This document shows, piece by piece, positions 4,320 to 64,000 of a DNA stretch of 64,000 nt. The stretch spans positions 183,582,001 to 183,646,000 of the forward strand of contig NW_027362771.1 of the NCBI RefSeq assembly GCF_046119375.1, written 5' to 3'. The notes beneath the pieces were generated by a model. That model was not told where the DNA came from. It saw nothing but the letters and a program-made list of their open reading frames with translations, and did no database searches. This DNA is from Phyllobates terribilis (Eukaryota). Numbering within the stretch: position 1 is the first letter of the stretch; every line of letters starts with the position of its first letter. The position numbers and the translations under genes were made by a program.

Positions 4320-6065
4320 TCTCGTTGGATGCTGAGAAAGCATTCCATAGAGTCTCCTGGCACGCCATATATGATTCTCTTAAAAAGCTTGCGGTAGGGG
4401 TCTAGGGGACCCTTTTATAGCCAAAATCACGGCCCTGTATCGCAATACGTCACCTAGGCTGAAGATAAATGGAACTGTAGCACCCTGAGGGCTCGGTTGC
4501 TACAGACGTATTGCACCTCACCCAGAGGTGTGATATCTCACTCTCAGGTAAGGATGGAGTGTGGATCAGGACCCGACACCTGCATGCATTACACCACATT
4601 GCCGTGGGGCAGGGCGACCAATATGCCCCTGAGATGGGCACGACAGTCCCTGTCCCTGGCTGGAGGGGAGTATAAAAGGTGGGCACCATCTTAGTTCAGT
4701 GCAGAGAAGTCTGAGCAGAAGTGGCAGGGAGCAGGGGCTCTGCATGAGCTCTGCTCCGGAGGCGGGCCTAGTAACAGAGGCCCAGGCCTGGAAGAGGGAG
4801 AAGGAAGGAAGAGGAGCGGAGAAGGCTCCAGGAACGAGGAATGAAGGGATCCCAGGGGTGCGGACGGGCGAGTCGCCACCACACGCCCGAATCCACCTGC
4901 GTGGAGGGGTCAGGCCAAAGGGGGAGACCGATCCCCGAACTAGTGGAGGCAGGAAACGACCCTCAGCTAGAAACCGGAGGCTCTGACATTTTATGTGGCG
5001 CAGCCCCTCGCTACACCCGCTAGGAAGGCACCACATAGGGTCAGGGAAACTGGCGCCAAGTTTACCAAGAGGAGGCCCGAGGCAGCCGGACAGAAGTGTT
5101 GGTAAGAAAGGCCAGACAAAGGACACACAAAGGGGGTCCTGTGAAGTGCTCCAAAGTTATCTGGGAGTTGTCTGAGCCCCTCACCTGGTGAGCACAGTAC
5201 GACGTGGGCAGCCGTTACCTGCAGACGTGGTCTGGATAATAAGAACTGTGAGTAAAGGCCCTGAACTGCATCACTGACTCCGTGTCGTTACTGCTGCTGC
5301 CCTGCACCATCACCCCCATCCTCCGCATACACTGCCCTGAGGCTATACTCCTCCCGTGGGGAGTTATGCTACGCTCTGCTGCACCCACAACACCAGCCTC
5401 AGCGGTCTGCCCTGTAGCGGCGGTTCACTCTGACCGCAATCCACGGGTGGCGTAGTCGGACATTTAAACATCAAAACCACATAAATAGTTCCGCCACTGG
5501 TTTGACCGCCCTGAGCCACGGAACCGGGTCGCCGCACCGAAGACTACAACCACCAGCATCCACCAAAAAGGGTCCGGCTCCGGGTGTCCCAAGGCCCAGG
5601 GGGTGCGTCAGAACATTTTCATCACCTTTCACAATCACCAATGGGACAAGGCAGTGATGTCCTCTGTCCCCTCTCTTATACATCCTAGTGACGGAGCACC
5701 TGCTCTCATCAATTCGCCATAACCCCAATATTAGGTGGATTGAGGTGGGAGGCACCGAGTACAAGTGCTCTCTATTTGCTGATGATGTCCTAGTATATAT
5801 CACTCAATCACATATATCCATCCATGCTGTTATGGCTGAAATAGATCACTTTGTTACATGGTAAAATTTTAAAATCAATGCAGCGAAGTCTGAGGCCCTC
5901 GATGTCTCCCTCCCCAAATCCATATAGGATTCCATCCAGTCCAACTTTCCCTTTGCCTGGCCCTCACAGGGTATCAAATACTTAGGAATTCCTATTCATA
6001 GAGACCTCTCCCATCTATGTTATCTTAATTTTGGGCCCTTTATTGAACAACTCCATACAGACCAC
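4320..6065 (+). pseudogene. L1-type LINE reverse transcriptase fragment split by a solo LTR (4320-4475 and 5611-6065)
   Basis: SLDAEKAFHRVSW, ...KINGTFSSPFTITNGTRQ*CPLSPLLY, SLFADDVLVYI and IKYLGI motifs. The frame continues across the LTR insertion point; stops and a frameshift are present. Confidence 0.88.
4476..5610 (+). mobile_element. Solo LTR (1135 bp), same LTR lineage as 49463-54593 and 59885-60880
   Basis: TGTAGCACCC...GGGTGCGTCA ends; 4-bp TSD GAAC on both sides; TATAAAAGGTGGGCACCATCTT at 4671. Confidence 0.92.
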
Positions 6066-6132: not shown

Positions 6133-7500
6133 CACTGCGTTCCAAATTATTATGCAAAAAGTGTTTAGGAGTGATAAGGGAAGAATTTGTTTGCTTGTCA
6201 GTTAAACTCATTGATGGTGATGTGTGTCAGGGCTCTTTATATCACTGTAAGCAATTGCAGACACCTGTGCTAATTAGTTTGGCAGGTGTGTCCAATGAAA
6301 GGCAAGACTACTTAAGAAGGCTCTCTCACATTATTAAGCAGCCTACATTTTCTGCCAAAATGGGAAAGAAAAAGGATGTGTCGGCTGCTGAGAAGCAACA
6401 AATTGTGGAGTGTTTAGGTCAAGGCATGACTACAATCAACATTGTGCGATGATCAGGATGAAGTGTCTTGGCAATCAAGAAGTATGTAGCTGATTCACAG
6501 TACACACGTGTGCGTGCTGATAAGGGCAAATTGAGGACTCTTTCCTACAGGCAATTACGTCAGGTTGAAAGAGCAGCGGCAAAAAAGCCTTGTCATAGCA
6601 GCAGACAAGTTTTTGAAGCTGCTTGTGCCTCCAACGTCCCCCGAACAACAAGATGCAGGGTCCTTCAGAGGTTTGCAGCTGTGCATGCGCCATCCTGTCG
6701 ACCTCCTCTATCCACTTCACACAAGCAGAAACAGCTCCAGTGGGCCAAACATTACATGAAGACTGATTTCAAAACTGTTTTGTTCACGGATGAGTGCCGT
6801 GCAGCGCTCGATGGTCCAGATGGATGGAGTGGAGGATGGCTGGTTGATGGACACCCCACGCAAACACGGCTACAGCGCCAACAAGGAGGAGGTGGAGTAA
6901 TGTTTTGGGCTGGAATCATGGGGAGAGAGATTGTCGGCCCCTTTAGGATCCCTGAAGGTGCTAAAGATGAACTCCATAATGTATGTGGATTTTCTCAAAC
7001 AGCACTTCCTGCCATGGTTCAAGAAGAAGAACCGTGTATTTCACAGCAAGATCATTTTTCTGCATGATAAGGCACCATCTCATGCTGCACATAAAACATC
7101 TGCATCTCTGGCTGATATGGGCATAAAAGGGGACAAACTTATGGTGTGACCCCCATGCTCCCCTGACCTCTACCCCATTCAGAACCTTTGGAGCATCATT
7201 AAAAGGAGTGTCTATGATGGCGGGAGGCAGTTCACATCTAAGCAACAGCTCTGGGAGGGTATTCTGTCCTCATGCAAAACAATTGAAGCAGAAACCATCC
7301 AAAACCTGACAAATTCAATGGACGAGAGAGTTCAGAAGCTCCTTTCGAACAAGGGGTCCTATGTGAAAATGTAACATCACCTAGAATAAAGTTTTGAGTT
7401 GAAAACTGTTTGATTTCAGTTTCTAACAACCTGCTAATGCTTATAATTTCAAAAATGACCATTTTTTTGGTCTTTATTAAAATGAAAAGGTTGATCGAAA
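6133..7500 (+). mobile_element. Tc1 transposon, right TIR missing; transposase pseudogene 6360-7374
   Basis: TA followed by CACTGCGTTCCAAATTATTATGCAAA. MGKKKDVSAAEKQQIVE start; VLFTDEC, FLHDKAPSH and SPDL*PIQNLW motifs; stops and a frameshift. Confidence 0.88.
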
Positions 7501-23948: not shown

Positions 23949-25844
23949 CTAGATGGTGGCCCGATTCTAACGCATCAGGTATTCTAGAATAGGTATGCGG
24001 CCGACCAGGCGCAATCAGCAGAGTGGTATTTAAATTTGGCGCCAAAATCGCTGATTGGTCGAGGCCGGCAACCGCGACCAATTAGCAAAGCGGTGTTAAA
24101 ATTTGGCGCCTATATCGCAGATTGGTCAGGGCCGGCGGTCACAACTAATCAGCAGAGCGGGGTTTAAATTTGGTGCCAATAATGCTGATTGGTCGCGGCC
24201 AGCGAACGCGAACAATCAGCAGAGCGGGGTTTAAATTTGGCGGCAATAATGCTGATTGGTTGCTGCCGGCGGTCGCGACCAATCAGAAGAGCGTTATTCA
24301 AATTTGGCGCTAATAATGGTGATTGGTCACGGCCGTGACTAATCAGCAGAGCGGTGTTTAAATTTGTCGCCAATAATGCTGGTTATTCGTGACCGGTAAC
24401 CGCGACCAATGAGCAGAGCGGTATTTAAATATGGCGCCAATATCGCTGATTGGTCGCGGCCGGCCACCACAACCAATCAGCGAAGCGGTGGTTAAATTTG
24501 GCGCCAATATCGCTGGTTGGTCACGGTCGGTGGTTGCAACTAATCAGCAGAGCGAGGTTTAAATTTGGCGCCAATACTGCTGATTGGTCGCGGCCGGCGA
24601 CCGCGACCAATCAGCTGAGCGGTGTTTAAATTTGGCGCCAATATTGCTGATTGGTCGCGGCCGGAAACCGCGACTAATCAGCAGAGCGGGGTTTAAATTT
24701 GGTGCCAATACTGCTTATTGGTCGCGGCCGGCGACCGCGACCAATCAGCAGAGCGGTGTTTCAAATTGGCACCAAAATCGCTGATTAGTCGCGGCCGGCC
24801 ACCGCGACCAATCAGCAGAGCGGCATTTAAATTTGCCGCCCATCTCGCAGATTGGTCGCGGTGGCCGGCTGCGACCAATCAGCAGAGCGGCGTTTAAATT
24901 TGCCGCCCATCTCGCTGATTGGTCGCGGTAGCCGGCCGCTACCAATCAGCAGAGTGGCGTTTAAATTTGCCGCCCATCTCACTGATTGGTCGCGGTAGCC
25001 AGCCACCGCAACCAATCAGCACAGCGGCGTTTACATTTGCCGCCCATCTCGCTGATTGGTCACGGCCGGCCACCGCGACCATTAAGCACAGCGGCGTTTA
25101 CATTTGCCGCCCATCTCGCTGATTGGTCGCGGTCGGCCCCGCCACCGCGACCAATCAGCAGAGCGGCATTTAAATTTTCCGCCCATCTCGCTCATTGGTC
25201 GCGGTGGCCACCGTGACCAATCAGCAGAGCAGCGTTTAAATTTGCCGCCCATCTCGCTGATTGGTCGCGGTCGGCCGGCCACCGCGACCAATCAGCAGAG
25301 CGGCGTTTAAATTTGCCGCCCATCTCGCTGATTGGTCGCGGCCGGCCACCGCGACCAATCAGCGTCGTATTAGTGTGGGCCCGGGAGCGGCGCTGCTTGT
25401 GCGGCTCCGTATTAGCGAGGACCGGGGAGCGGCGCTGCCTGTGCGGCTCCTTCTGCTGCGAGAAGCCAGGAGATGAGCGGCTGCTCGCAGCAGAAGTATC
25501 CCGACCGGCGGCACCACTCCTCGGTCGTCCGTTCACACTTGCTGTCGGGAAATCAGCGGGCCAAGCCGCTGATCTTCCGACGTTAGCCGCATGGAGGTCA
25601 GCGGCGCGGTCGGGGTAGTTGTGCTGCTAGCGCCGCTCATCTCCCCGCTGCATCGCCGCTGACCTCCGTCCGCCAAATGAGCCGCTAACGGCCGCCATCT
25701 TTTTTCAGAAATCCCGCGGCGCTGATTGGCCGCTGCCGGACCAATGAGCGACGCGGGATTTCCAGGACAGAAAGACAGACAGACAGAAAGACAGACAGAC
25801 AGATAGACAGACAGACAGATGGGATAAGACAATTATATAGTAGA
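23949..25844 (-). mobile_element. Non-autonomous Helitron
   Basis: Minus-strand 5' end TCTACTATATA at 25844; 3' hairpin c(c/t)gatgcgttagaatcggg followed by CTAG at 23949-23952; inserted between A and T with no TSD; (GACA)n near the 5' end. Confidence 0.85.
24010..25365. repeat. ~67-bp CpG-rich tandem array (about 20 units) inside the Helitron
   Basis: Unit aatcagcagagcggtgtttaaatttggcgccaatatcgctgattggtcgcggccggcgaccgcgacc. Confidence 0.9.
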
Positions 25845-37971: not shown

Positions 37972-40900
37972 TGTCACACTGTCACAGAATACTGGAGGTA
38001 GGGGGCCTAAGCTGACCCTAAGCTGGGGCCCTGACTAATCCCTCAACCTGGAGGTACTGTTAAAGGTACAGAGGTCCAGGCCGCCAGCGTAACCCCTACC
38101 TCCTGAGGATCCCTGCACCTCAGTAATCTAGTCCTGAGAAGGACCCCGATCACAACAATTGGGAACCAGAAATAATATGCCCACACACAGTATTTAGACG
38201 AACGAGACAGTACAAGGGAAAAACCAAAACCACCTTGCATACAACTTCTACACAACTACAACAGAGGGAACACCAACGGGAAAGGAGATAAATGATAAAG
38301 CGAGGAAAGGGAAAAAACACTTCCAAATACACTTATCTCAGCAACTCCAAACACCACGATCCGCTCTGTAAGTCTGAATGAAAAGCTTTCACCGACACCT
38401 CCCAAACAGACCTGCAGGAATATGAAGGAGTCTCACTAAAGAAGCATTGATTGCAGCTGGGCGAGGCTGGACCTCAGCTAGCCCAGAGAGAGAGAGAATT
38501 AACTCCTTCACTGCCGAAAAAACACAAAGCACCAACAAGTCAGCTGCGAGAAGTCAGGCTGTGTACTCGTGACGATCTTCGTGGCAACACACCCGTGACA
38601 GTACCCCCCCTTCTACGAGGGGCCTCCGGACCCTCAGGGCCAGGTTTATTCGGGTGAGTCGTGTGGAAGGCCCGAACTAATCGGTCTGCGTTAATATCCG
38701 ACGCAGGAACCCACATCCTCTCCTCAGGACCATACCCCTTCCAATGAACCAAGTACTGAAGGGACCGGCGATTAAAGCGTGAATCAATGACCCTCGATAC
38801 CTGGAACTCCAAGTTACCATTGACAACCACAGGAGGGGGAGGTAAAGGTGACGGTACCACCGGCGCCACATACCTCTTAAGCAATGATCTGTGAAACACG
38901 TTGTGAATTTTAAACGTAGGGGGGAGGTCAAGACGGAATGCCACCGGATTAATAACAGAACTGATTCTGTACGGCCCGATGAACCTGGGACCCAGTTTCC
39001 AGGAGGGAACCTTAAGTTTAATATTCCTGGTAGACAACCATACCTGATCGTTCACACTTAGGTCCGGACCAGACACTCTCCTCCTATCAGCCATACGTTT
39101 GTATCGGTTCCCCATAGTATTCAGATTCTTCAGCACCCCTCTCCATACTGAAGCGAGAGATGAGGAAAATCGTTCCTCCTCCGGAACCCCCGAAGAGCCC
39201 CCCCTACTGAAAGTACAAAACTGGGGGTGAAAACCATATGCCCCAAAAAACGGGGACTTACCAGTGGACTCGCTCCGCCTATTATTGAGAGCAAACTCTG
39301 CCAGAGGTAGGAAAGAAGCCCAGTCCTCCTGGTTCTCTGACACAAAACACCGAAGATATGTCTCCAAGCTCTGGTTCATACGTTCCGTCTGACCATTGGT
39401 CTGAGGATGAAAAGCCGACGAGAATGACAAATGCATCCCCCGCCGTGCACAAAACGCCTTCCAGAACTTGGACACAAACTGAGACCCCCGATCAGACACC
39501 ACCTCGGAGGGTACCCCGTGAAGCCTCACAATTTCCCCAATGAACACCTGCGCAAGAGTTTTAGCATTAGGGAGAGCCATCTTGCTGAACCTGTCCACTA
39601 CAACGAGTATGACCGTTTTACCCGAAGACGGAGGGAGGTCCGTAATAAAGTCCATAGACAGATGAGTCCAAGGACGCTCCGGGATCTTCAAAGGTAAAAG
39701 GGCCCCAGACGGACGGGTATGTGAGGTCTTAGAGCGCGCACAAACCCCACAGGACGCGACAAAAGTTACCACCTCTTTATGTAAGTTAGGCCACCAAAAC
39801 CGACGCGAGAGGAGATCCACAGTTGCTTTACTCCCCGGGTGTCCTGCAAAAACTGAGTTATGGTGTGCCTCGATCACCTTTTGTCGCAACTGATCTGGAA
39901 CGAACAGTCTCCCCGGAGGTCCAACAGGGGCGTCCCCCTGAGCCTCCAATATCTCCTCCTCCAGCTCAGAGCATACTGCCGAAACCACCACCCCCTCCTG
40001 AAGGATAGGAATCGGGTCGTCCGTATTCCCGGCCCCAGGGAAACTACGAGATAAGGCATCCGCCTTTACATTTTTAGACCCAGGACGATATGTAACGACG
40101 AAATTAAACCTGGTAAAAAACAATGACCACCTAGCTTGTCTGGGATTCAGACGTTTAGCGGACTCCAGATATAGCAGGTTTTTGTGATCGGTGATGACGG
40201 TGACCGGATGAACTGCCCCCTCCAAAAAATGGCGCCACTCCTCAAAAGCTAACTTAATGGCCAAGAGTTCCCTATTGCCGACATCGTAATTCCTCTCAGC
40301 GGACGACAATTTTTTAGAGAAAAAGGCGCACGGATGCCACTTACCAGGGGACGAACCCTGTGACAATACTGCTCCCACCCCTACCTCGGAAGCGTCTACC
40401 TCTACAAAGAATGGCTGAGACGCATCAGGTTGAATGAGTATGGGTGCCGAGGCAAAACATTTTTTCAAGGAGGAGAATGCTTGACAAGCCTTGTCAGACC
40501 ACCTAGAAAAATCCGTCCCCTTTTTAGTCATGTCTGTGAGAGGCTTAACCATGGACGAGAAATTACGAATGAACTTCCGGTAATAGTTAGCAAACCCCAG
40601 GAAACGTTGTAGTGCCTTAAGATTCTCCGGCCGATCCCACTCAAGAACTGCCCGCACTTTCCCAGGGTCCATACGAAAACCGGACGCTGAAACCAGGAAG
40701 CCTAAAAACTGGAGTTCCTGTACGGCGAACACACACTTTTCCCACTTGGCATACAGTTTATTATCCCGCAAGATCTGTAACACCTGCCTAACGTGCTCCT
40801 GATGAGACACCAGATCCGGCGAGTAAATTAAGATATCATCCAGATATATGACAACAAACTGTCCCACCAGGTGGCGAAAAATATCATTAACAAAGTGTTG

Positions 40901-43395
40901 AAACACCGCCGGGGCATTAGTCAGACCGAATGGCATGACAAGGTTCTCATAATGCCCCTCCGGAGTGTTAAAAGCCGTCTTCCACTCATCCCCCTCCTTC
41001 ATCCTAATCAGATTGTACGCCCCCCTGAGATCCAACTTAGAGAACCATTTGGCGCCCACGATCTGATTAAAGAGATCGGGAATAAGTGGGAGCGGATACG
41101 GATCTCGGACCGTAATCCGATTAAGTTCACGGAAATCCAGGCAAGGGCGTAGGCCTCCATCTTTCTTCTTAACAAAGAAGAACCCCGCGGCCACCGGTGA
41201 AGATGAAGGTCTAATATGCCCCTTAGCCAGACTTTCAGAAATATAATCCTTCATGGCCTGCCTCTCAGGACCAGAAAGGTTATACAACCTAGCTTTAGGT
41301 AACTTGGCCTCAGGGAGCAGTTTTACAGAACAGTCATACTCGCGATGAGGAGGTAGTTCCTGACACCCATTCTCCGAGAATACATCCTCAAAGTCCGCCA
41401 GAAATGGAGGTAAGACCCAAGGAGTAACCGCACCGATGACCGTGTTCATGCAGTTTTTATTACAGAATTTACTCCATTGGCTTATCTCTCTGGTTTGCCA
41501 ATTAATAACCGGGTTATGCTTAGCTAACCAAGGAAGGCCCAACACTATAGGAGCGGGAAGACCCTCCAACACGTAGCAAGACAACAGTTCTTTATGTATT
41601 GCCCCCACTTGAAGTTTTACGCCATGCACAGCTTGCAAAAAACTTCCCTGACCGAGAGGCCTGGCATCGATCGAGAATATGGGGATGGGTTTAGCCAACT
41701 CACTCAATCGCATACCTTGAACCCGGGCAAACCGAGCATCAACCAGTTTAGCCCCGGCCCCACTATCCAGAAGAACAGATATCCTCTCAGTTCTCGCACC
41801 CACCACCACCTCCGCCGGTACGAGAAACTGAGACGAACCTAGGGACGAAATACCTACTCCCAGATTGCCGTCCACCACACAACCTGGGATCAACAGTTTT
41901 TTCGACGACTCTTTACTCTGCAAGGGACGGGATGGACACCCCCCAATAAAATGTCCCTTTTTCCCGCAGAGGAAACACCTTCCTGTCTTATGGCGCTCCA
42001 CCGGTCCCCTTCCCCGAAATGATGTCCCTCCTAATTGCATAGGCTCCTCCGGACTGACCAGGGGAACCACCATATGAGGGGACCTTGTAGGAGGTGGAGA
42101 CATTACAGGGGGTAGAGTTATCCCGCACCTCTCCCGAAGCCGTCTGTCAACGCGAATGGCAAGGGCCATAGCGGCTTCCAGTGACGCGGGAGAGTCATAC
42201 TGTGCCAACACATCCTGTAATTTGTCGGATAAACCATGACAAAACTGGCTCCTAAGAGCCGGGTCATTCCACTGGGTGTCCGTGGCCCACCTACGGAACT
42301 CCGAACAGAATTCCTCCGCCGGACGATCTCCCTGCTGAATCCTACGTAACTTAGACTCAGCAAGGGAGATCCGATCTGGGTCATCATATACGAGTCCCAG
42401 AGCAGCGAAAAACCTATCCACTGACTGGAGAACCGGGGAGCTTGGGGGAAGAGAGAACGCCCAAGATTGTGGGTCTCCTTGTAGGAGCGAGATGACAATT
42501 CCCACCCTTTGTTCTTCGCTGCCCGATAACCGAGGCCGCAGCCGAAAGTACAATTTGCATGCCTCCCGGAAAACAAAAAACTTGTCCCGCCCCCCAGTGA
42601 ACCTGTCAGAGAGAGCTACTTTAGGTTCTGGTCCGGCTTGCTCCAGAGGATGCAAAACCTTGGACCTAACGTCCGCCAGCCCCATGGACAAACTCTGCAA
42701 CTGCCGAGCTAGACCGGCTACTGGATCCATGGTAGCTGGAGAAAAACTAAGTTGGTCGGTGAAAATGTCACACTGTCACAGAATACTGGAGGTAGGGGGC
42801 CTAAGCTGACCCTAAGCTGGGGCCCTGACTAATCCCTCAACCTGGAGGTACTGTTAAAGGTACAGAGGTCCAGGCCGCCAGCGTAACCCCTACCTCCTGA
42901 GGATCCCTGCACCTCAGTAATCTAGTCCTGAGAAGGACCCCGATCACAACAATTGGGAACCAGAAATAATATGCCCACACACAGTATTTAGACGAACGAG
43001 ACAGTACAAGGGAAAAACCAAAACCACCTTGCATACAACTTCTACACAACTACAACAGAGGGAACACCAACGGGAAAGGAGATAAATGATAAAGCGAGGA
43101 AAGGGAAAAAACACTTCCAAATACACTTATCTCAGCAACTCCAAACACCACGATCCGCTCTGTAAGTCTGAATGAAAAGCTTTCACCGACACCTCCCAAA
43201 CAGACCTGCAGGAATATGAAGGAGTCTCACTAAAGAAGCATTGATTGCAGCTGGGCGAGGCTGGACCTCAGCTAGCCCAGAGAGAGAGAGAATTAACTCC
43301 TTCACTGCCGAAAAAAACACAAAGCACCAACAAGTCAGCTGCGAGAAGTCAGGCTGTGTACTCGTGACGATCTTCGTGGCAACACACCCGTGACA
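37972..43395 (-). mobile_element. Young full-length Ty3/Gypsy chromovirus (sushi/Tf1-like)
   Basis: LTRs 37972-38600 (629 bp) and 42766-43395 (630 bp); I saw only a 1-nt poly-A difference by eye. TG...CA ends, 5-bp TSD ACTGG, PPT AGAAGGGGGGG next to the 3' LTR. Confidence 0.95.
38540..42730 (-). CDS. Gag-Pol polyprotein (Gag, CCHC, protease, RT, RNase H, integrase, chromodomain), single frame, 1396 aa
   Basis: CFLCGKKGHFIGGC, VLLDSGA, YLDDIL, DASEVG, HNSVFAGH..C..C, DFIT / SDRG / ERMN, and FQVSRVIDSR...YLVHWKGYGPEERMW. Confidence 0.95.
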   Translation of the reverse strand: MDPVAGLARQLQSLSMGLADVRSKVLHPLEQAGPEPKVALSDRFTGGRDKFFVFREACKLYFRLRPRLSGSEEQRVGIVISLLQGDPQSWAFSLPPSSPVLQSVDRFFAALGLVYDDPDRISLAESKLRRIQQGDRPAEEFCSEFRRWATDTQWNDPALRSQFCHGLSDKLQDVLAQYDSPASLEAAMALAIRVDRRLRERCGITLPPVMSPPPTRSPHMVVPLVSPEEPMQLGGTSFRGRGPVERHKTGRCFLCGKKGHFIGGCPSRPLQSKESSKKLLIPGCVVDGNLGVGISSLGSSQFLVPAEVVVGARTERISVLLDSGAGAKLVDARFARVQGMRLSELAKPIPIFSIDARPLGQGSFLQAVHGVKLQVGAIHKELLSCYVLEGLPAPIVLGLPWLAKHNPVINWQTREISQWSKFCNKNCMNTVIGAVTPWVLPPFLADFEDVFSENGCQELPPHREYDCSVKLLPEAKLPKARLYNLSGPERQAMKDYISESLAKGHIRPSSSPVAAGFFFVKKKDGGLRPCLDFRELNRITVRDPYPLPLIPDLFNQIVGAKWFSKLDLRGAYNLIRMKEGDEWKTAFNTPEGHYENLVMPFGLTNAPAVFQHFVNDIFRHLVGQFVVIYLDDILIYSPDLVSHQEHVRQVLQILRDNKLYAKWEKCVFAVQELQFLGFLVSASGFRMDPGKVRAVLEWDRPENLKALQRFLGFANYYRKFIRNFSSMVKPLTDMTKKGTDFSRWSDKACQAFSSLKKCFASAPILIQPDASQPFFVEVDASEVGVGAVLSQGSSPGKWHPCAFFSKKLSSAERNYDVGNRELLAIKLAFEEWRHFLEGAVHPVTVITDHKNLLYLESAKRLNPRQARWSLFFTRFNFVVTYRPGSKNVKADALSRSFPGAGNTDDPIPILQEGVVVSAVCSELEEEILEAQGDAPVGPPGRLFVPDQLRQKVIEAHHNSVFAGHPGSKATVDLLSRRFWWPNLHKEVVTFVASCGVCARSKTSHTRPSGALLPLKIPERPWTHLSMDFITDLPPSSGKTVILVVVDRFSKMALPNAKTLAQVFIGEIVRLHGVPSEVVSDRGSQFVSKFWKAFCARRGMHLSFSSAFHPQTNGQTERMNQSLETYLRCFVSENQEDWASFLPLAEFALNNRRSESTGKSPFFGAYGFHPQFCTFSRGGSSGVPEEERFSSSLASVWRGVLKNLNTMGNRYKRMADRRRVSGPDLSVNDQVWLSTRNIKLKVPSWKLGPRFIGPYRISSVINPVAFRLDLPPTFKIHNVFHRSLLKRYVAPVVPSPLPPPPVVVNGNLEFQVSRVIDSRFNRRSLQYLVHWKGYGPEERMWVPASDINADRLVRAFHTTHPNKPGPEGPEAPRRRGGTVTGVLPRRSSRVHSLTSRS

Positions 43396-48920: not shown

Positions 48921-49778
48921 TTAAGGTGTAACACACAGAGAAGATCTGAAAATGGTCACCAATTACTTCTCAGAAACTCATCTTTTATAACAGACATTGC
49001 ACTTACAAAAAGATTAAACCATTTAGATAAAGGACATTCAGGTCAAATTTAAAGGTCTTGAGGAAGATTCTAAAATAATAGGTGAAGTAATATAAAGTAG
49101 ATTATGGAGACGGGTTACTTGGGATTGGTAAGGGAGAGAAAAAAGCCTTTAGCATAATATACTTAAGAATACAAATCAAAACCACATGTGCAATGCAAAT
49201 AATATACAGCAAAAAAATAGATTTGTCCAGAATAGCAAAGCCTTTTTTTCTCTTGAGCTTTGTCTTGAAAGAACATTTGTAAAACAATTTTCTCCAATAA
49301 AAACAGGTTTGTAGATAAAGTTAATGTAAACACAACAAGGTATTGTACAGCTGAGCCCGGTATCCAGCTTATGGAAAATGAACAGCGCAGCAGGAGATAA
49401 ATGATTGGTCAAGGGCTAGAGACAAATGCACTTTATGAATCAAAAGAAAACAAAGGTACAAATGTAGCACCCCGAGGACTCGGCTGCTACAGGGGTATTG
49501 CACCTCGAACCAGAGGTGTGATATTCCACTCCCGGGTAAGGATGGAGTGTGGAACATAGCTCAGTTAGCTGCATGCACTACACTCACCCCATTTCCGGGG
49601 GACAGACCAACGGTACTCCCACCAGATAGATGTGCAGGTACGACAGCTTCTGTCCCTGGCTGGAGTGGGGAGGGGGGAGGAACATCCCAGTGGTGTAGGA
49701 GCAGACAGGGGAGGGACTCTGGGCATAGGTAGGAGCCCATTGGGTGCTAGTCACCTGGGCTCGGGTGTCAGAAGGGAG

Positions 49779-49786
49779 TATAAAAG
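49779..49786 (+). promoter_or_regulatory. Probable LTR TATA box
   Basis: TATAAAAG followed by GTGGGCACCATCTT; identical in the 3' LTR and in the solo LTR at 4671. Confidence 0.6.
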
Positions 49787-50742
49787 GTGGGCACCATCTT
49801 GGATTAGAGAGTTCAGGCAGGAGGAGAAGAGGAGAGGAGCTCAGCCAGAGAGGGCTGACAGGGAGCTGTGGCTCAGTCCGGGCCCAGCTCCAGAGCCAGG
49901 CCTGGAGAGGAGGCCCGAGGCAGAGAGAGAGAGAGAAAGAAGAAGAAGGAGGAACAGAAACACCAGGAAAGGCCCAGAGACGCAAGAAGAGAGGGAACCC
50001 TGAGATCCCACGAGTTAACGGGTGAAGGGTTGGCAGAACAGGGTACCGGATCCCAAACTGGTGGAGGCCAATTATCCTCAGCCAGGAACCGGAGGTCGTG
50101 GTCAAGCCTTGGCGCGACCCCTCACCATATCCACCAGGAAGGCATACCACGTATAGGGTCAGGGGAGCCGGGAAAGGTTTCACCACTAGAAGGCCCGAGG
50201 GAGCCGGACAAAGGTGGGTCCCTGGTGGGGACGGCCAGTAGAAAGGAAGAGAGGGGAGCCCTGGACCACGCTCCGGAATTGCCTGGGAGTTAGCCGAGTC
50301 CCTCACCTGGTGGGCGCAGCACGGCTCGGGTGGTCCTTACTGCGCACAAGTAACCTGATAAAGAACTGTGAGTAAAGCTGTGAAAACTGCAACCGCACGT
50401 CTCAGTGATTCCTTGCCACACTACCACTACCACCATCATTCTTCCCTGCCTTTCCAGCTGCCCTGAGGCTATACCCCTCCCGTTGGGGGTTATACCATCC
50501 ACGCTGCACCACCGTACCACCGGCCTCAGCGGTCTGCCGTGCAGCGGCGGCTTCATAGCCGCAATCAACGGGTGGCGTAGTCGAACAAAATAACATCTTA
50601 TGCCAAGCATCGCCACTTAGTTTGACACCCTGGGCACGGACCGGGTCACCGCCACGAGGACTACTACCCCTATCGGATCCGGCTCCGGGTATTCCCCGCA
50701 TGCGCAACGCTGCACAACATGGCCCAGGGGGTGAGTCAACTT

Positions 50743-50761
50743 TGGCGTAGTCGGCAGGATT
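50743..50761 (+). promoter_or_regulatory. Primer-binding site complementary to the tRNA-Ser 3' end
   Basis: TGGCGTAGTCGGCAGGATT lies 4 nt after the 5' LTR. It is the reverse complement of ...AATCCTGCCGACTACG-CCA, the recalled vertebrate tRNA-Ser end. Confidence 0.85.
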
Positions 50762-50962
50762 ACGTGCCCGCAACCACCGGGTACTGCGTGCCTGAAGGAA
50801 AGTTAACATGTACCTGAAAAAGAAGTCTCCCGCCAATTCCGGAGGATTCCCGCCATCGGACGCCGTCCGGAGTCGTTTCCCGCCGTTTGCCCCGCCATTT
50901 GCAGCCTTTACCCGCCATCCGCGGAGTTTCCCGCCATCAGGAGACGATTCCCGCCATCTGAG

Positions 50963-52696
50963 ATGGTTTCCCGCCCTGGCAGAGCGGACGCCATTATGGG
51001 CGTGCCAGAGGGTGGCAAGAGACCACCTCCCATCGTGGGCATGGCCCCAGAGTGGCGCCAAAGGAAGAGACCGCCCCCACCAGCCGAGACTACAATAATG
51101 GAGATGTCCATCAGAGTGGGGGGTCTGCCCCTGAAACTGACTGTCACTAAGATGCCCCGGGACCACTCCCAATGGGGGCGGATAGGGAATAAAGCTGAGA
51201 AGATGGGTGCGGCCTGGAGGAGTCTGGACAGATCGCACCCGGGGATGGAGGAAGAGTCGAGCAGCACCGACCCCGTGGTTCGGAGCCTGTTGCAGGCCGC
51301 CACCCCAGAAGGCCTGGTGGATATCCTGGCACAACTCCCCAGAGATCGGGAGCGTGCACAGACCGCGCTGGAGGCCTTGGCCCGGAAGATGGCCCAAGTA
51401 CAGCAGGAAGCACTGGCCGAATGGAGAAGGGAGATGGCCCAGCAGGCTGGAACCCGCCAGCAGAGGACGCCACCCGCAACGTGGGGCATGTCTGCCCCTG
51501 AGGATGGTGCAGGAGGGACGAAGGCCGGAGACGACGCCGCGGAGGGAGCTGCAAGGATGGAAGCAGGTAATGGGGACGTCACTACCCCGAGCCCAGTAGC
51601 CGCAAGCCTGCCCCAGCTCCCCGTCGCAGAGCCCGAAGTCCTACTCACCACGCCCGTTGCCGCACCGCCACTACTCCCAACTAGGCCTCAAGCGGCAGGA
51701 GCCGCGGTCACGGCCTCTTCCGCGCCACGCCCCTTGACCCTGAGCGCGGCAAAACAGGAAGTGCCACCGGCCTGGTCGCAGGGCCTGGTGAACCCAGGCG
51801 CTGATGCCCCTCCAGCGCCCTCTTCCTCAACGGTGCCGTCCTTTGACCCAAATAGGATTCCCCCGGCCTGGTCGCAGGGCCGAGTACCCCCGGGCGCCGC
51901 GGTCTGCACAGCGCCCTCTACCTCCACTGTTCCGCCGGCCTGGTCGCAAGGCCGGGTACCTCCGGGCACCGCTGCCCCCACAGCGCCCTCGACCTCCACA
52001 GTGCTGCCCCTGGGCGAAGATCTCTTCGCGCAGCATACTAGCCCGGACGGGCTGCCCTTCGTGTGGCCACCGGAGTACATCAACCCCCGACTCCGGAGGG
52101 AACGGCCCCTGTGTGAGCCTCTGATCCCGGCACCGGCGCCTGCCAAAATTGTCCCGCTCCCATTGGAAGACGCCCAATTCGCATGGGATCCGACCGGTGA
52201 GGACCTCATGGGGTTCACCAAGGAGACCCGGGCGGCCGCAGCCCGGCGTGAGGAGTGCTGCCGTCAACAGCTGGAGGTCTTTGGGAGAGAACGGCGAGAG
52301 AGGCGAATCCGCGAGGAACAGCTGCAGGCCCAAAGCGCGGAGCAGAAACGCCGGGCCCGACGAAACCCCCGTACGGCCCACGGCCCCCGCACCACCGGGA
52401 CCGTAATAAAGTTTCAACTGGAGAACGGCTGGGGCTTTATCCGGGATCACCGAACCCCCGGCGACGTCTTTGTCACCCGCAGGGATGTCAAGAGCCACCT
52501 GCCGGAGGGACACCGCGGACGTGACCTCTACCCGGGTGATGTGGTCGCCTTCACCTGGCATCAGTGTGCCAAAGGACCGTACGCCCTTCACGTACACCGG
52601 CTAACAGAGGAGGAGTTGCAGTATGAGGAAGACCAAGAGGACCCGGACGGGTCTGAAGACTACCCTCAGGAAGGAGCAGGAGGACATTGTTACTAA
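50963..52696 (+). CDS. 577-aa protein: N-terminal helical/coiled-coil region, Pro/Ala-rich repeats, R/E-rich helix, C-terminal cold-shock domain (~52391-52603), acidic tail
   Basis: Uninterrupted ORF filling most of the internal region. GTVIKFQLENGWGFI...DVFVT...GDVVAF...KGPYALHV fits the CSD/OB-fold pattern (RNP1-like GWGFI, RNP2-like DVFV). Confidence 0.85.
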   Translation: MVSRPGRADAIMGVPEGGKRPPPIVGMAPEWRQRKRPPPPAETTIMEMSIRVGGLPLKLTVTKMPRDHSQWGRIGNKAEKMGAAWRSLDRSHPGMEEESSSTDPVVRSLLQAATPEGLVDILAQLPRDRERAQTALEALARKMAQVQQEALAEWRREMAQQAGTRQQRTPPATWGMSAPEDGAGGTKAGDDAAEGAARMEAGNGDVTTPSPVAASLPQLPVAEPEVLLTTPVAAPPLLPTRPQAAGAAVTASSAPRPLTLSAAKQEVPPAWSQGLVNPGADAPPAPSSSTVPSFDPNRIPPAWSQGRVPPGAAVCTAPSTSTVPPAWSQGRVPPGTAAPTAPSTSTVLPLGEDLFAQHTSPDGLPFVWPPEYINPRLRRERPLCEPLIPAPAPAKIVPLPLEDAQFAWDPTGEDLMGFTKETRAAAARREECCRQQLEVFGRERRERRIREEQLQAQSAEQKRRARRNPRTAHGPRTTGTVIKFQLENGWGFIRDHRTPGDVFVTRRDVKSHLPEGHRGRDLYPGDVVAFTWHQCAKGPYALHVHRLTEEELQYEEDQEDPDGSEDYPQEGAGGHCY

Positions 52697-54944
52697 TGAA
52701 CGGTAACTGAAACTGTATATAGTTACCCGTAGGGGTACCTGTCATGCTGCTAATTGGAGTGTGGTCCCCGTTGGGACTAGAGTGGAACTGTTAAAAAACT
52801 GTTTCCTGTGTGCCCCTATCCCTAACCAGGCTGAGGACTGTGAGCAGCCACTCCCTTATCCCCACTGGCCGAGGACTGAGAGCGGTCAACACCCTGTAAA
52901 TAGTTGCGCTTCTTAAAGCGCCCCCTATTGTTTTTATAAGGAACTGTTTTTCTACCTCGGAATTAGTGACTGTTGCACTTTACCTGGTCACAAGTTGCGC
53001 CGTGGCCAGAGATCAAGAATGTGTTTGTGAAGAACGTTTTATATGAGAATGTTTTACTTGAAAAAGTTTTATATTGAAAGTTTAAATGCTGCTAGTATAA
53101 TAATGTAAAAGTTACCTGTGATGTTCTATAATGTGTCATATGCTAAAAGAGTTCCGGTAGTTTTGACCAGTAACGTTAAAGAGAAGAGTACCTCCCATAA
53201 AGGGATGAGTTGAAAGTTGATATATCTTATATGCAAGTGTACACTTTAAAATTTTTTGTATGTCTAATTGTTTTGCTCTATTCCAGCCCGAGGACGTGCT
53301 GTGATTTACCAGGGGGGAATGTAGCACCCCGAGGACTCGGCTGCTACAGGGGTATTGCACCTCGAACCAGAGGTGTGATATTCCACTCCCGGGTAAGGAT
53401 GGAGTGTGGAACATAGCTCAGTTAGCTGCATGCACTACACTCACCCCATTTCCGGGGGACAGACCAACGGTACTCCCACCAGATAGATGTGCAGGTACGA
53501 CAGCTTCTGTCCCTGGCTGGAGTGGGGAGGGGGGAGGAACATCCCAGTGGTGTAGGAGCAGACAGGGGAGGGACTCTGGGCATAGGTAGGAGCCCATTGG
53601 GTGCTAGTCACCTGGGCTCGGGTGTCAGAAGGGAGTATAAAAGGTGGGCACCATCTTGGATTAGAGAGTTCAGGCAGGAGGAGAAGAGGAGAGGAGCTCA
53701 GCCAGAGAGGGCTGACAGGGAGCTGTGGCTCAGTCCGGGCCCAGCTCCAGAGCCAGGCCTGGAGAGGAGGCCCGAGGCAGAGAGAGAGAGAAAGAAGAAG
53801 AAGGAGGAACAGAAACACCAGGAAAGGCCCAGAGACGCAAGAAGAGAGGGAACCCTGAGATCCCACGAGTTAACGGGTGAAGGGTTGGCAGAACAGGGTA
53901 CCGGATCCCAAACTGGTGGAGGCCAATTATCCTCAGCCAGGAACCGGAGGTCGTGGTCAAGCCTTGGCGCGACCCCTCACCATATCCACCAGGAAGGCAT
54001 ACCACGTATAGCGTCAGGGGAGCCGGGAAAGGTTTCACCACTAGAAGGCCCGAGGGAGCCGGACAAAGGTGGGTCCCTGGTGGGGACGGCCAGTAGAAAG
54101 GAAGAGAGGGGAGCCCTGGACCACGCTCCGGAATTGCCTGGGAGTTAGCCGAGTCCCTCACCTGGTGGGCGCAGCACGGCTCGGGTGGTCCTTACTGCGC
54201 ACAAGTGACCTGATAAAGAACTGTGAGTAAAGCTGTGAAAACTGCAACCGCACGTCTCAGTGATTCCTTGCCACACTACCACTACCACCATCATTCTTCC
54301 CTGCCTTTCCAGCTGCCCTGAGGCTATACCCCTCCCGTTGGGGGTTATACCATCCACGCTGCACCACCGTACCACCGGCCTCAGCGGTCTGCCCTGCAGC
54401 GGCGGCTTCATAGCCGCAATCAACGGGTGGCGTAGTCGAACAAAACAACATCTTATGCCAAGCATCGCCACTTAGTTTGACATCCTGGGCACGGACCGGG
54501 TCACCGCCACGAGGACTACTACCCCTATCGGATCCGGCTCCGGGTATTCCCCGCATGCGCAACGCTGCACAACATGGCCCAGGGGGTGAGTCACAAAGAA
54601 TGTACAAGTGCAAGAATTACATTCAAAAGTAAATGTTTGCAACCGTTATAACACAAGTGTACTACTGGTAGTTGCAATAAAACAATTGTTCTGCTCCACC
54701 AGATGCATAACTAACAAGCTTTTTTCATTAAAATCGGTGGTAGTATAATGATTTTATAACATTATATACTTTTTCCTACCTGCTCATATTCAGTCATAGG
54801 GGTGTGATTCTCTCATTCAGTCAGGGGTGGGCGCAGCATTCAGTCACTGCTGGCGCCACCCATGTATTTTACTATTGCTCCCGGCAATATACACTGGGGG
54901 CAGTGTAGATAGTAGTTAGGATATGACAGGTTCCCTTTTTAAGA

Positions 54945-56909: not shown

Positions 56910-57788
56910 CAATATGCACCCTCACATTGCTTCTTATACACTGCGTGAGCCCAACATAGCCTCCCTATATACAGCGTGAGCCCCCCCACATAGCCACCCA
57001 TATACAGCGTAAGCCCCAAAATGGCCTCCCATATATAGCATAAGCCCCACATAGCCTCCCATATACAGCTTGTTCCCCACATAATCTCCAATATACTGCA
57101 TGAGCCCCACATAGCCTCACTATATATAGCATGACTCCCCCATGCCTCCTATATACAGTGTGAACCCCACATAGCCTCCCAGATACAGTGTGAGCATCAC
57201 ATAGCATGAGCCCCACATACCCTCCCATATACAGCATGAGCCCACATAACCTCAAATATACAGAATGAGCCCCACATACCCTCCCATATACAGCATGAGC
57301 CCCACCTAGCCTCCCATTTACTGTATGAGCTGTACATAGCCTCCCATACACAGCATGAGCCCCACATAGCCTCCCATGTACATAAAAACATCCCATACAC
57401 ATGAAAAAAACCACAATATACTCACCGTGCTCTCCCCGCTTCCCCTGCTCCTGTCTCCGGTGCACTGACTCTCGACAGTTCACAGCTGATGTGATGAAAT
57501 GACGTCAACACGTCTGCTGTCTCACACTCTGATTGGTGAAATAAGGTGCCGGTGGCCCCTCCTCTACCAATGTATTCACTGCTGTCTGCATCCTGAGGAT
57601 GTGAACAGCGGTGACAGAAAACGGCCTCTGCGGGGGATGTGCAGTGAGGGAGGGCATGGTGTGGCACGTGGGCCACTGTTTCAGCCCTTCGACTGTCTCG
57701 GTCCACATCATGTTTGCCTGTCTGGTGGGACCCAGACATTTTTTTTGTCTACCTGATAAGGTCCCAGGAGAAAAGGTTTGAGAATCCC
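56910..57788. mobile_element. ~30-bp minisatellite (56910-57400) and right end of a hAT/Charlie-like non-autonomous element
   Basis: ccccacatagcctcccatatacagcatgag units; terminus ...aggtttgagaatccctg (reverse complement CAGGGATTCTCAAACCT). Confidence 0.65.
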
Positions 57789-59884: not shown

Positions 59885-62800
59885 TGACGCGCCCCTGAGC
59901 CTACTTGGTGTAGCGTTGCGCACGCGGGAACTACCCGGAGCCGGGCCTGTTGGGGGTAGTAGTCTCATGGCGGTGACCCGGTCCGTGCCCAGGGAGTCAA
60001 ACTGTGTGGCTGAGTATTAGCAGTAGATGTTGGACGACTACGCCACCCGTTGAATGCAGCTATGGAGCTGCCGCTGCAGGGCAGACCGCTGAGGCCGGTA
60101 GTACGATTGTGCAGCGTAGATGGTATAACCCCCAACGGGAGGGGTATGGCCTCAGGGCAGCCGACGTGGATGATGGGGGTAGCAGGAACCACTCAGAGAC
60201 GATGCGGTGTAGTTCAGGGTCTTTACTGGTGATAAAGATAGACCCTCCCGGAGTACTGGCTAGCGATCGGGGCCTGGTCAGTCTTTGAGCAGATGGGATT
60301 TCCCCTGGCCAGGCGGAGTTGTAGGCCTCCCCAACTAATTGTACTCTTCTGGCTACCTTGCTAGAGGCGGGTAAAAGTAGCCCACGTCCCTGAGTGTACC
60401 GTGTGGTGCTCACCCGTATGGCCGGTGACTCGGGGCCTTCTAGTGGCTTCCGCTCCACGACGGCGGTGCTGGTCCCACGCGTGTGACCGTGCCTTCGGGT
60501 TTCTTGGCCAGAGGACCTGAAATCCCCTGCCGGTCGGTTTCTGCTGCTGGGTAAGGATTAGTCCCCACAGCCTCGGACTCCGGGTCCGGTGGTAACTCTT
60601 CAATCAGGGCGAGCTCTACAGCTGCCAGCCCCTGATTCCTTTTAGCACGACTTCCCCAGAGCTCCTGATCTCTCTTTCCTATAGCTGCTTCTCCTCTTCT
60701 CTCTCTACTCTTTTTCCTCTAACCCTGCCTCAGCCCCAGCTTTATATAGGGGAAGTTCTTCCCCTCCCAGGACTGGGCAGGAGGTGTGGCATGCATAGGA
60801 TGTCTGACCAGGAAACCTCCCACCTGCTCTCAGACATAATATTGCTATTACTGTGGAAACCAGACCCCTGGGGTGCCACATTCCCCCCTAGTGAATTTTA
60901 GTACTCCGGGACTAAACATATTTTTGTAACATAACAAATTACAAACAGAAACAACGCAATAAAGAAAAACATTAGGATGGTCACGGCGTGTCCGCAACCG
61001 GGTGCAGTCTTTGAAGAAAACTAAGGTGTCCATTTCACCAAAAACAGGGAGACGTAACCAGGTAGGGGTCTGTCCTGCCCCGAGTCCTTAACAGTCTTTA
61101 GTCCGTCCTGGGTTACGCTCCAACTATATGCACAAAGGATTCCCGGTAAATCCACCAAAGACTCCTACAAATAACTAGAAACACATAATTATACACAAGC
61201 AACAATAAACAGGTAAACATTAATAAAATAGCTTGAACATTTAGATCCTCCACCGTATGGGCAACTGGCCTCTAGTAACCCTAGTGGACCTACGGAGCTG
61301 GCTGACTGGTCCTGAGCTACAGGGTATAGGAGCTGTCAATGGTAAACTGGGCAGCCGTCTACGGACTCTTTGGCTCACTAGAGGTATGGCAGGCTCACTA
61401 TAAGCAGAGGGTTGATTCTCCTGGTCTGCTTGTGTGGGGTCTTCTGCCTCCTGGACCGGCTGTTCTTCCAGCTCTACCTGTGTCTCCGTAGGCACTTGGG
61501 ATGCTGGTTGGAGGAACGTGAGGACGGGTACCACAACAGCACCATTGACTTGAGTCCAAGACCGAGGGAAGTCTCCGAGCACAGTACTAACCATATCTTC
61601 CCTTTCCTCTACGGGTCGAGGGTCTTCTTGTTCCTCTTCAGGGTTCCGTAGCTGTTCGGGACACTTCTTCAGGTGATCCCGGGATACAATGGCTGTGGTT
61701 TCCCCTCCGTCTTTACTGATTGTACAGATCTTTGGGTTGTCGTGGCTTGAGGGCAGTACGGTGTACGGGTCCTTCTCCCACTGGTCGTCCAACTTGTGGA
61801 GCCGTCTTTTCCTCTTCAAGACCTGCTCTCAGGGCACCAGGGGAACAGCGGGAGCATACTGGTTGTAAGTTTTCTCTTGTCTTTCCCTAGCTTGACAGAG
61901 ACTTCGCTCCACGCTCTCCTGTACTTTCCGGTACTGCTGCTGCCTCTCTGTGTCCCAGTCTGCTTCTGGTGAAGTGTCCTCGGGTGTCAGGACTCCCATC
62001 TCCAGATCAACAGGAAGCTTACCAGGTCTCGCCCTCATTAGGTAAGCCGGGGTGCAGTTGGTGGAACCCACAGGGATGTGGTTGTATAGGTCCACCAGGT
62101 CGGGCAGCTTTTCAGGCCACAGACTACGTTCTTCCAGGGGCAATGTTTTCAGAAGATCTATCACCACCTGGTTCATTTTCTCACAAAGTCCATTAGTTTG
62201 CGGGTGATAGGGTGTTGTTCTTATCTTCCGGCAGCCATACAGGGTGCAGAACTCCTGGAAGACTTCCGCTTCAAAGGCAGGCCCCTGGTCCGTCAGCACC
62301 TGCTCCGGGTATCCGTGCGGACGGCAGAAGTGCTGCTGGAAGGCTCTAGCTGCTGTTTGAGCCGTTAAGTCCTTGACGGGGACGACTACCAAGAACCGGG
62401 AGTAGTGATCCACGATGGTTAACGCGTACACGTAGCCACTTCTGCTTTTGGCCAGTTTTACATGATCCAAGGCTACCAGTTCCAACGGCTGTCTGGTGAT
62501 GATGGACTGCAGGGGAGTCTTCTGGCTGGCACGGTCCCTCCTTCTTAGGTTGCATGGGCCACAGTCTCTGCACCACCTCTCGATGGTTCCTCTCATGCCT
62601 ACCCAATGGAACTGCCCACGCAGCAGGAACTCCAGCTTCTTCCATCCGAAGTGCCCAGCTCCGTCGTGGTATGCCTCCATCACCATAGCTGCGTCTCTTC
62701 TTGGCACCACTACTTGCCAGATTAGTTCATGCGTCCGGGAGTTAACCATTCTGCGGCACAACTTCCCCTTGTAAAGGAACAGTCGACTCTTCTCAGCCCA

Positions 62801-64000
62801 CAGTTGCTTGGCTTCCTCCGGAGCGTCTGGGTCAAGGCGTGCATCTGGCTGAGTCAGCATCTCCTTTACCAGTCGGACAGCAGGGTCACTGTCTTGCGTC
62901 TCCGCCCAGTTGTAATGAGGTAATGGGTTGAACGTAGAGGATTGCTTACTCCTTACACGGTGGGAATACTGGATAGTCTCATGACGGTGGAACGCGGGGA
63001 GTTCAACTTCTTCCAGTTCCTCTGAATCTTCCCCTACGTCCGGTAGGTTCGGCATCCTGGACAGGGCGTCCGCGTTGGTATTGGAGCGTCCTGCCCGGTA
63101 TTTGATTGTAAACTCATAGTTGGACAAGCGGGCCATCCATCTCTGCTCTAGGGCACCGAGTCTTGCAGTGTCCAGGTGTGTCAACGGGTTGTTATCCGTG
63201 TACACGGTGAACCGGGAAGCAGCGAGGTAGTGCTTAAAATGTTTGGTGACTGCCCACACCACTGCCAGGAACTCTAGCTTAAATGAGCTGTAATTCTCAG
63301 GGTTTCTTTCGGTGGGTCGCAGTTTTCGGCTGGCGTAAGCAATTACCCGTTCCTTCCCCTGCTGGATCTGGGACAGTACGGCTCCTAGCCCGATGTTACT
63401 GGCGTCGGTGTAGAGGATAAAGGGCTGGCTATAATCAGGGTACGCCAGGATTTCATCCCCTGTGAGGGCCATCTTCAGCTGGCGGAAGGACTCTTCTTCC
63501 AGCTTCTCCCATCTGAAGGGTGGCTTCTGGTTCTTGGCCTTCCTGGACTGGCCTATCAGGAGGTCCTGCATAGGAGCTGCCTTTTTGGTGAAACCGGGAA
63601 TGAACCTTCGGTAGTAGCCTACCAACCCGAGGAACTGCCTCACTTCCTTTACGCTGGAGGGGCTTGGCCATTCCTTAATTGCGGTGATCTTATCAGGGTC
63701 GGGAGCCACTCCGTCAGCACTCACCACGTGTCCCAGGTACTGCACCTTTGGCTTCAGGAGGTGACACTTGGAGGGTTTCACCTTTAGGCCGTAACTTGCC
63801 AGAGCTTCGAACACTTCCGCCAGGTGTTTCAGGTGGTCCTCGTAGGTCTTGGAATAGACGATGACATCGTCCAGGTATAACAGGACCGTCTCAAAGTTTC
63901 GGTGTCCCAGACAGCATTCCATCAATCGCTGGAAGGTTCCTGGTGCGTTGCAGAGTCCGAACGGCATGCAGGTAAACTCGCTAAGTCCCATCGGGGTGGT
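59885..64000 (-). mobile_element. 3' part of a non-chromovirus Ty3/Gypsy element; the 5' part is outside the window
   Basis: 3' LTR 59885-60880 (TGTGGCACCCC...GCGTCA on minus), PPT AGGGGGGAA at 60881-60889, and pol upstream. Confidence 0.92.
61241..64000 (-). pseudogene. Gypsy pol (RT, RNase H, integrase) with one in-frame stop at 61829-61831
   Basis: MPFGLCNAPGTFQR, YLDDV, YTDASNIG, HDGAGH..C..C, ALDHV, TDQG and EKMN motifs. The sequence reads ...VPLVP*EQVLKRKRR, so ORFs 61829-63991 and 61241-61819 are one frame. Confidence 0.92.

Follow-up and report, generated by a model that had tools for sequence, protein, structure and literature searches.

A cold-shock domain encoded within a young, pol-less LTR retrotransposon of the poison frog Phyllobates terribilis

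LTR retrotransposons that carry a single open reading frame (ORF) and no pol gene are already known from frogs and fish. The Xenopus elements 1A11, xretpos and lambda-olt 2-1 possess an ORF but no homology to pol (PMC4585706), and the zebrafish BHIKHARI elements Bik-1 and Bik-2 are recently active, pol-less elements whose single ORF encodes a coiled coil at the N-terminus and, at the C-terminus, a part proposed to bind nucleic acid (PMC12067270). The capture of host mRNA between LTRs has likewise been described in animals, with pieces of host message being caught by template switching (PMC5131818). Cold-shock domains (CSDs) need no ATP to melt and anneal nucleic acids, and the Y-box proteins that contain them pack mRNA in oocytes; vertebrate Y-box CSDs are more than 90% identical to one another, and a longer loop between strands 3 and 4 sets YB-1 apart from bacterial Csp (PMC7226217). 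Here we describe a locus at which a CSD is encoded within a mobile element.

The window analysed, a 64,000-nucleotide stretch of P. terribilis DNA, contains an element that spans 49463-54593 (5.1 kb, with an interior of 2.58 kb) and has the following outline:

49459..49462: left target-site duplication, CAAA (the same four bases follow the 3' LTR)
49463..50738, forward strand: 5' LTR of 1276 bp, TG...CA, with a TATA box at 49779 and a putative poly(A) signal, AGTAAA, at 50371 (identified from the LTR pair)
50743..50761, forward strand: primer-binding site (PBS), four bases after the LTR (complement of a tRNA 3' end)
50807..52696, forward strand: sole long sense ORF of the element, 629 codons from stop to stop (first in-frame ATG at 50963)
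53311..53319, forward strand: polypurine tract (PPT), AGGGGGGAA (the same nine bases precede the 3' LTR of a neighbouring Gypsy element)
53320..54593, forward strand: 3' LTR of 1274 bp (identified from the LTR pair)
54594..54597: right target-site duplication, CAAA (matches the left copy)

The two LTRs are 99.5% identical, differing by five substitutions and one 2-bp indel, and the insertion is recent. A Pfam scan of ten frames included six long frames of the element, taken from both strands; these six returned the CSD alone, with no gag, reverse transcriptase (RT), RNase H or integrase. The TG...CA LTR pair, the CAAA duplication, the PBS and PPT, and a Pfam content limited to the CSD therefore identify a young, non-autonomous LTR retrotransposon that lacks pol. 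Copies within the 64-kb window comprise this full one and one related solo LTR. We take the PBS to be the complement of the 3' end of tRNA-Ser; no tRNA genes occur in the window. Folding of the U5/PBS RNA gave a z of -1.19, with 10 of 100 shuffles as stable and a covariation term, drawn from three sequences only, that was unfavourable, and an Rfam search across the element returned a single chance match (E 3.1). An 11-base copy of the PBS start also lies within the 3' part of four related LTRs (at 50573, 54428 and 5448 on the forward strand and 60045 on the reverse), about 165 bases before the LTR end and in a 16-base block identical across three LTR types; folding of the region around this LTR-internal copy was not significant. 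The 800 bases downstream of the LTR TATA box (49800-50599) contain no ATG, and only four upstream ATGs, out of frame or short, precede the first in-frame ATG of the ORF.

Related LTRs are found elsewhere in the window:

4476..5610, forward strand: solo LTR from a related subfamily, flanked by a 4-bp duplication of its own, GAAC (LTR comparison)
59885..64000, reverse strand: another element, of Gypsy type, encoding RT, RNase H and integrase and truncated by the end of the window (Pfam, LTR comparison)
59885..60880, reverse strand: 3' LTR of this Gypsy element, related to the LTRs of the CSD element (84% identity over 276 nt of the 3' part of the LTR)

The neighbouring Gypsy and the CSD element have an identical 9-base PPT and similar LTR ends. 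As judged from these likenesses, the Gypsy family is quite likely to be the helper of the CSD element, a role that we infer because the PBS and gag of the Gypsy copy fall beyond the window. The pol of this copy (61241-64000, reverse strand) encodes RT, RNase H and an integrase core, and an in-frame stop at 61829-61831 parts the core from 195 further open codons. The window also holds a 1411-codon open gag-pol with a chromodomain (38540-42775, reverse strand), which is of the chromovirus type and unrelated to the CSD element; an open frame of 1223 codons that encodes BED zinc finger and hAT dimerisation domains (7833-11504, reverse strand); and long tandem arrays at 11651-13371, 24012-25363 and 56946-57382 with periods of 108, 67 and 30 bases. 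Judged by eye, the solo LTR seemingly interrupts a LINE-like remnant (4300-7400) and is followed by a Tc1-like transposase remnant (approximately 6370-7370).

The protein predicted from the ORF can be divided into the following segments, all on the forward strand:

51245..51451: N-terminal helical, heptad-like segment, aa 147-215 (30 of 69 residues identical in the relative P0153)
51452..52006: linker rich in Pro, Ala, Ser, Thr and Gly (64%), aa 216-400 (composition)
51761..52009: three copies of an 81-nt repeat, in the linker (repeat scan)
52007..52381: aromatic motif (F-x-W ... D-L-x-G-F), then an R/E-rich helix into the CSD, aa 401-525 (alignment with relatives)
52391..52603: CSD, aa 529-599 (Pfam, profile and PDB searches, AlphaFold model, fold comparison)
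52604..52696: acidic tail and stop (conserved in the closest relative only)

The 629-codon frame is longer than expected by chance, since, when the bases of the ORF were shuffled 500 times, the longest frame without a stop averaged 196 codons and at most reached 451. Homology to P0153 begins at the ATG at 51245, which would give a product of 483 aa. The heptad stretch of the N-terminal segment aligns in five relatives, weakly so beyond P0153, P0002 and P0154, and a homodimer prediction for the N-terminal helix gave no answer either way, at a score of 0.02 against a mark of 0.32. As the original prediction had described, an R/E-rich segment (aa 471-525, net charge +8) precedes the CSD and an acidic tail (aa 600-629, net charge -12) follows it; the CSD and preceding helix together are basic. 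No CCHC zinc knuckle pattern occurs in the ORF.

Identification of the CSD itself, also made in the original prediction, is borne out by profile and structural comparisons alike. The peptide quoted there is the exact forward-strand translation of 52391-52603, corresponding to residues 529-599 of the 50807-52696 frame, and it matches the Pfam CSD model PF00313 over profile positions 2-64 of 66 with 30 bits (cut-off 27; E 4.7e-7). In relatives, the same model scores 36.9, 33.7 and 32.1 bits, above the cut-off, and 24.1 and 23.7 bits, below it. Folding of the single sequence gave a weak model (pLDDT 63.6) whose structure searches put CspA and UNR first; this was superseded by an AlphaFold model built from an alignment of six family members only, without Y-box or Csp rows, which shows a five-stranded beta-barrel (pLDDT 87.8, pTM 0.77). 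Foldseek searches with the latter model return CSDs as top matches (best E 8.5e-7), and VIA-align comparisons give Z 12.7 for CspA (rmsd 1.7 over 69 residues), 12.6 for YBX1 (rmsd 2.1 over 75 residues), 10.7 for both LIN28B and CARHSP1, and 10.1 for UNR. For this predicted model the fold comparison is thus a tie, YBX1 and CspA being indistinguishable as nearest fold. The ESM Atlas yielded only generic clusters for the CSD region, all under 0.9. Among NCBIfam models, bacterial CSD families weakly match all six family members (CspE, 30 bits against a cut-off of 120). For the window copy (52343-52618), the model ranked first is that of the retron Se72 effector, another CSD linked to a retroelement, which also matches all six members; as an assignment it was rejected, scoring 31 bits against a cut-off of 82.

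Inspection of the nucleic-acid binding face, with residues counted by YBX1 numbering in up to 11 sequences per position, reveals a surface that has been partly retained and partly replaced. F74 is kept in all ten sequences and F85 in 10 of 11, whereas W65 (0/10), K64 (0/10) and H87 (0/11) are kept in none, in agreement with the earlier observation of altered residues where W and H are normally conserved. An Arg occupies position 89 in 10 of 11 sequences, and Trp stands in place of Tyr72 in nine of ten. Strand 5 is intact in seven sequences, all of which carry K or R at position 118 and Y or F at position 121; the latter position presumably lies on the binding face, as in Csp structures. In YB-1, W65, F74, F85, H87, K64 and K118 are each needed for binding CAUC-type RNA oligonucleotides (PMC7226217). 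Because W65, H87 and K64 are all lost, the specificity of Y-box binding is probably gone from the family. Binding of nucleic acid by the domain is in itself probable.

To place the domain among its relatives, we searched 1.84 billion representative sequences and obtained 263 matches at E up to 0.001. Among the 150 matches listed, six have a single matched stretch, namely five close relatives (47-77% identical) and one 77-aa Csp-like protein, and 144 have several stretches, those inspected being multi-CSD proteins. A profile search of 8000 scored candidates gave 11 matches, of which ten are frog proteins and one is a distant match from a protist collection; when the C-terminal 178 aa were used as query, none of 220 candidates of similar length proved to be a homologue. 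The ten frog proteins come from Ranitomeya variabilis, R. imitator, P. terribilis and Anomaloglossus baeobatrachus, spanning Dendrobatidae and Aromobatidae, with two to four proteins per species in three species; this taxonomic range may mirror which genomes were poorly repeat-masked. These relatives are known as protein sequences, the LTR setting being seen for the window copy only. A common layout runs through the family: heptad helix, Pro-rich linker, aromatic motif, charged helix and CSD.

Conservation within this layout is centred on the CSD. Six aligned CSDs are 46-78% identical with no indels, and in the closest relative the CSD matches at 56 of 71 residues, compared with 89 of 185 for the linker. 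In P0004, P0005, P0022 and P0152, the CSD scores far above all 200 shuffles, the N-terminal helix and tail do not outscore shuffled sequences, and the linker does so only marginally, in two of the four. This conservation of an indel-free CSD between diverging flanks points to selection on the domain. Half of the ten relatives are gene models that join the CSD to unrelated genes, as expected of a dispersed repeat. In these public poison-frog models (P0152-P0156), CSD pieces are fused to R3H, astacin/CUB (UVS.2-like), MADF, MIF4G and transposase-like genes; such fusions are probably annotation artefacts, although exonisation may lie behind them. A viral carrier of the CSD may also exist.

The original prediction proposed, beyond the presence of a CSD, that the domain looks Y-box-like and may have been captured from a ybx-like mRNA. 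Several comparisons favour a Y-box source. The family profile scores YBX1 highest (42.5 bits), followed by CspA (37.3), LIN28 (26.1), CARHSP1 (22.0) and CSDE1 (20.4); the 5-bit lead over CspA may stem largely from the loop gap, and one of 146 non-family proteins compared, a 77-aa Csp-like sequence, equals YBX1 with 43.5 bits. In PDB searches with single members, a Y-box protein is the top CSD for four of five: P0022 (33.0 bits versus 19.3 for the next family), the window copy (27.2 versus 26.4 for a Csp), P0005, weakly (15.3 versus 14.2), and P0004, at a score of 12.3 that is not significant. The fifth, P0002, matches a bacterial Csp best (24.5 versus 21.6 bits). The strand 3-4 segment comprises 20 residues in all eight members measured, 19 in YBX1, 15-16 in Csp-like proteins, and 12 in 41 of 68 non-family segments. 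This loop length is the only Y-box-like part of the motif set put forward in the original prediction; GTV, GFI, DVFV, V-x-F and KG are mostly general CSD features.

Other observations are those expected if the domain derives from something other than a vertebrate Y-box gene, be it an older part of a retrotransposon lineage, LIN28, CARHSP1, CSDE1 or a microbe, with the long loop having arisen independently. The window CSD shares 24 of 68 aligned residues with YBX1, or 31-35% across comparisons, an identity no higher than the 34-37% shared with CspA or an actinobacterial Csp. The Y-box extension after strand 5 is absent, in that matches to a 93-residue zebrafish construct end at residues 76-77 where a Y-box-type control reaches 91, and missing W and H residues are also seen in many multi-CSD proteins. 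The surroundings of the domain differ as well: an Ala/Pro-rich stretch ends some 125 residues upstream, and only the 30-residue acidic tail follows, with no alternating-charge domain. In free trees (38 and 22 domains; 67 and 73 columns; P0021 and P0153-P0156 left out as incomplete), the family is strongly supported as a clade (100/99), has a long stem (1.0-1.8 changes per site) and does not join the Y-box-type rows (excluding branch 96/82), those rows being four domains of one divergent Y-box-type protein in a set without vertebrate YBX, LIN28, CARHSP1 or CSDE1. An AU test does not reject the Y-box grouping, with p of 0.061, or 0.18 without the 16 'other' rows, which are biased towards resemblance because they were chosen as the best profile scorers among the hits retained; the clade itself found no supported place among the other CSDs. 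Set against a non-Y-box donor are the deficits of LIN28, CARHSP1 and CSDE1 (16-22 bits below YBX1), the 14-bit preference of P0022 for Y-box, the frog origin of all ten close relatives, and a GTDB scan for the loop motif in which none of 163 pattern matches was confirmed as a relative. On balance we consider such a donor doubtful, and derivation of the CSD from a host Y-box gene moderately probable. The Y-box likeness proposed at the outset is therefore favoured but unproven, given the top profile match and long loop on one side and the approximately 35% identity, fold tie, missing extension and separate place in the tree on the other. The capture is not recent, nor is it peculiar to the window copy, since the W and H losses are common to all relatives; the family is a CSD family of its own rather than a member of the Y-box protein family.

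What might such a protein do? Under the reading that we prefer, a young non-autonomous LTR element would be copied by the enzymes of the related Gypsy family, having long ago picked up the CSD of a host Y-box mRNA through template switching during reverse transcription. The captured CSD would then have been cut down to its barrel and kept by selection in a poison-frog element family, its binding face being rebuilt by retention of F74, F85 and a basic residue 118, loss of W65, H87 and K64, and fixation of a new aromatic on strand 5. The resulting protein would bind and protect the RNA of its own element as an ATP-free chaperone or adaptor and, in the manner of a nucleocapsid domain, would ease the entry of that RNA into particles of the helper or assist at priming. 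Expression of Gypsy elements is high in the ova of poison frogs (PMC6278860) and YB-1 supports HIV RNA metabolism (PMC6040738), which makes the capture of a CSD plausible. What counts against this reading is that every member has lost W65, H87 and K64, residues whose replacement in YB-1 abolishes normal binding of RNA oligonucleotides (PMC7226217). The chance that the CSD acts on the element's own RNA is nearly even, and a chaperone or adaptor role, suggested by the ability of CSDs to melt and anneal nucleic acids, is slightly short of that. The fullest version, in which poison-frog LTR parasites captured the CSD of the chief mRNA-masking protein of the oocyte, remodelled its binding face and use it as their sole folded domain, either as a nucleocapsid-like chaperone hijacking Gypsy particles or as an anti-masking counter-defence, is speculative and on the whole unlikely.

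Several other roles deserve consideration. The ORF directly follows the PBS, and its N-terminal heptads and C-terminal nucleic-acid module echo the Gag of zebrafish Bik-1 (PMC12067270), as would be anticipated for a decayed gag that has retained its N-terminal coiled coil, shed the capsid domain and exchanged a zinc-knuckle nucleocapsid for the CSD. Yet no Pfam gag model matches the ORF at E up to 1, the ORF has no similarity to the chromovirus gag-pol of the window (best E 0.45), the N-terminal segment has no usable match in the ESM Atlas, and the low-complexity linker in the middle seems to leave no room for a capsid domain, so that we regard this origin as somewhat improbable. Counter-defence in trans is a further scenario, in which the protein, as a mimic or decoy of Y-box, would compete with the host's own Y-box proteins or sequester small RNAs; element RNA would in that case be generally unmasked or stabilised in oocytes and early embryos, and the element's own genome would not be chaperoned. 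In oocytes, mRNA is both repressed and stabilised by Y-box proteins (PMC7226217), which are also the best host match; the rebuilt face suggests a new specificity, and fast flanks around a fixed core fit host conflict. The family, however, lacks the C-terminal domain through which Y-box proteins oligomerise (PMC7226217), and the YB-1 loop dimer residues Y99 and D105 are not kept. Both the decoy activity and its general effect on element RNA seem to us improbable.

A barrel that no longer binds nucleic acid, and instead docks helper Gag or a host factor, for example, has a precedent in Unr/CSDE1, which carries non-canonical CSDs serving protein binding. Loss of W65, H87 and K64 in every member would fit such a module, and a surface for protein contacts could be built from the conserved loop motif together with the new aromatics of strand 5, but retention of F74, F85 and basic 118, the prevalence of Trp for Tyr72 (9/10) and Arg 89 (10/11), and the basic character of the CSD and its preceding helix make this quite improbable. 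The low identity to any host CSD and the five relatives of ten that are pieces of chimeric gene models might even suggest a neutral passenger, a captured retrocopy fragment that is merely decaying; an open frame in so young a copy, a CSD core free of indels in both frog families and the concentration of conserved residues in that domain make this most improbable.

The fullest version outlined above, if true, would mean that a transposon has domesticated a host RNA-binding domain, possibly feeding the Gypsy expansion of the giant poison-frog genomes. The literature searched (listings, with subscription journals, Repbase and supplements outside its scope) contains no CSD-bearing LTR element, and the term 'cold shock' is absent from the main text of the Bik paper (PMC12067270), of the XtERV-S paper and of two poison-frog genome papers, whose supplements could list the family; the element is real and apparently undescribed. 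A small, foldable CSD provides a test case for a freeloading element that competes for helper machinery or evades germline RNA control, and a natural variant without W65 and H87 should be useful for defining the rules of CSD binding. The same domain contaminates poison-frog gene annotations.

Comparison with the systems introduced above sets the locus apart from each. Y-box proteins (YBX1/2/3; FRGY1/2) share with it the CSD fold, the long strand 3-4 loop and equivalents of F74, F85 and K118, and are its best host match in PDB searches, but here identity is only about 35%, W65, H87 and K64 are lost, there is neither a C-terminal extension nor an alternating basic/acidic C-terminal domain, and the CSD lies at the C-terminal end of a protein encoded inside an LTR element. 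Bacterial Csp proteins (CspA, CspE) and the retron Se72 effector have the same fold (CspA, Z 12.7) and weak NCBIfam matches, but scores are far below cut-offs, the Csp loop is shorter and GTDB holds no family relative. As for the pol-less elements, the protein of Xenopus 1A11, compared by description only, is called Gag-like in an account that mentions no CSD (PMC4585706), and Bik, whose product is a true Gag with a genuine capsid domain, is lokiretrovirus-related (PMC12067270), whereas the present element has no detectable capsid and its LTR relative is of Gypsy type. LTR-mediated retrocopies, finally, are young and close to their parent gene (PMC5131818), whereas the CSD described here is of old origin, has diverged strongly and is conserved in a family that has spread. 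What appears unusual is thus that a captured host RNA-binding domain would be kept by selection as the main product of an element.
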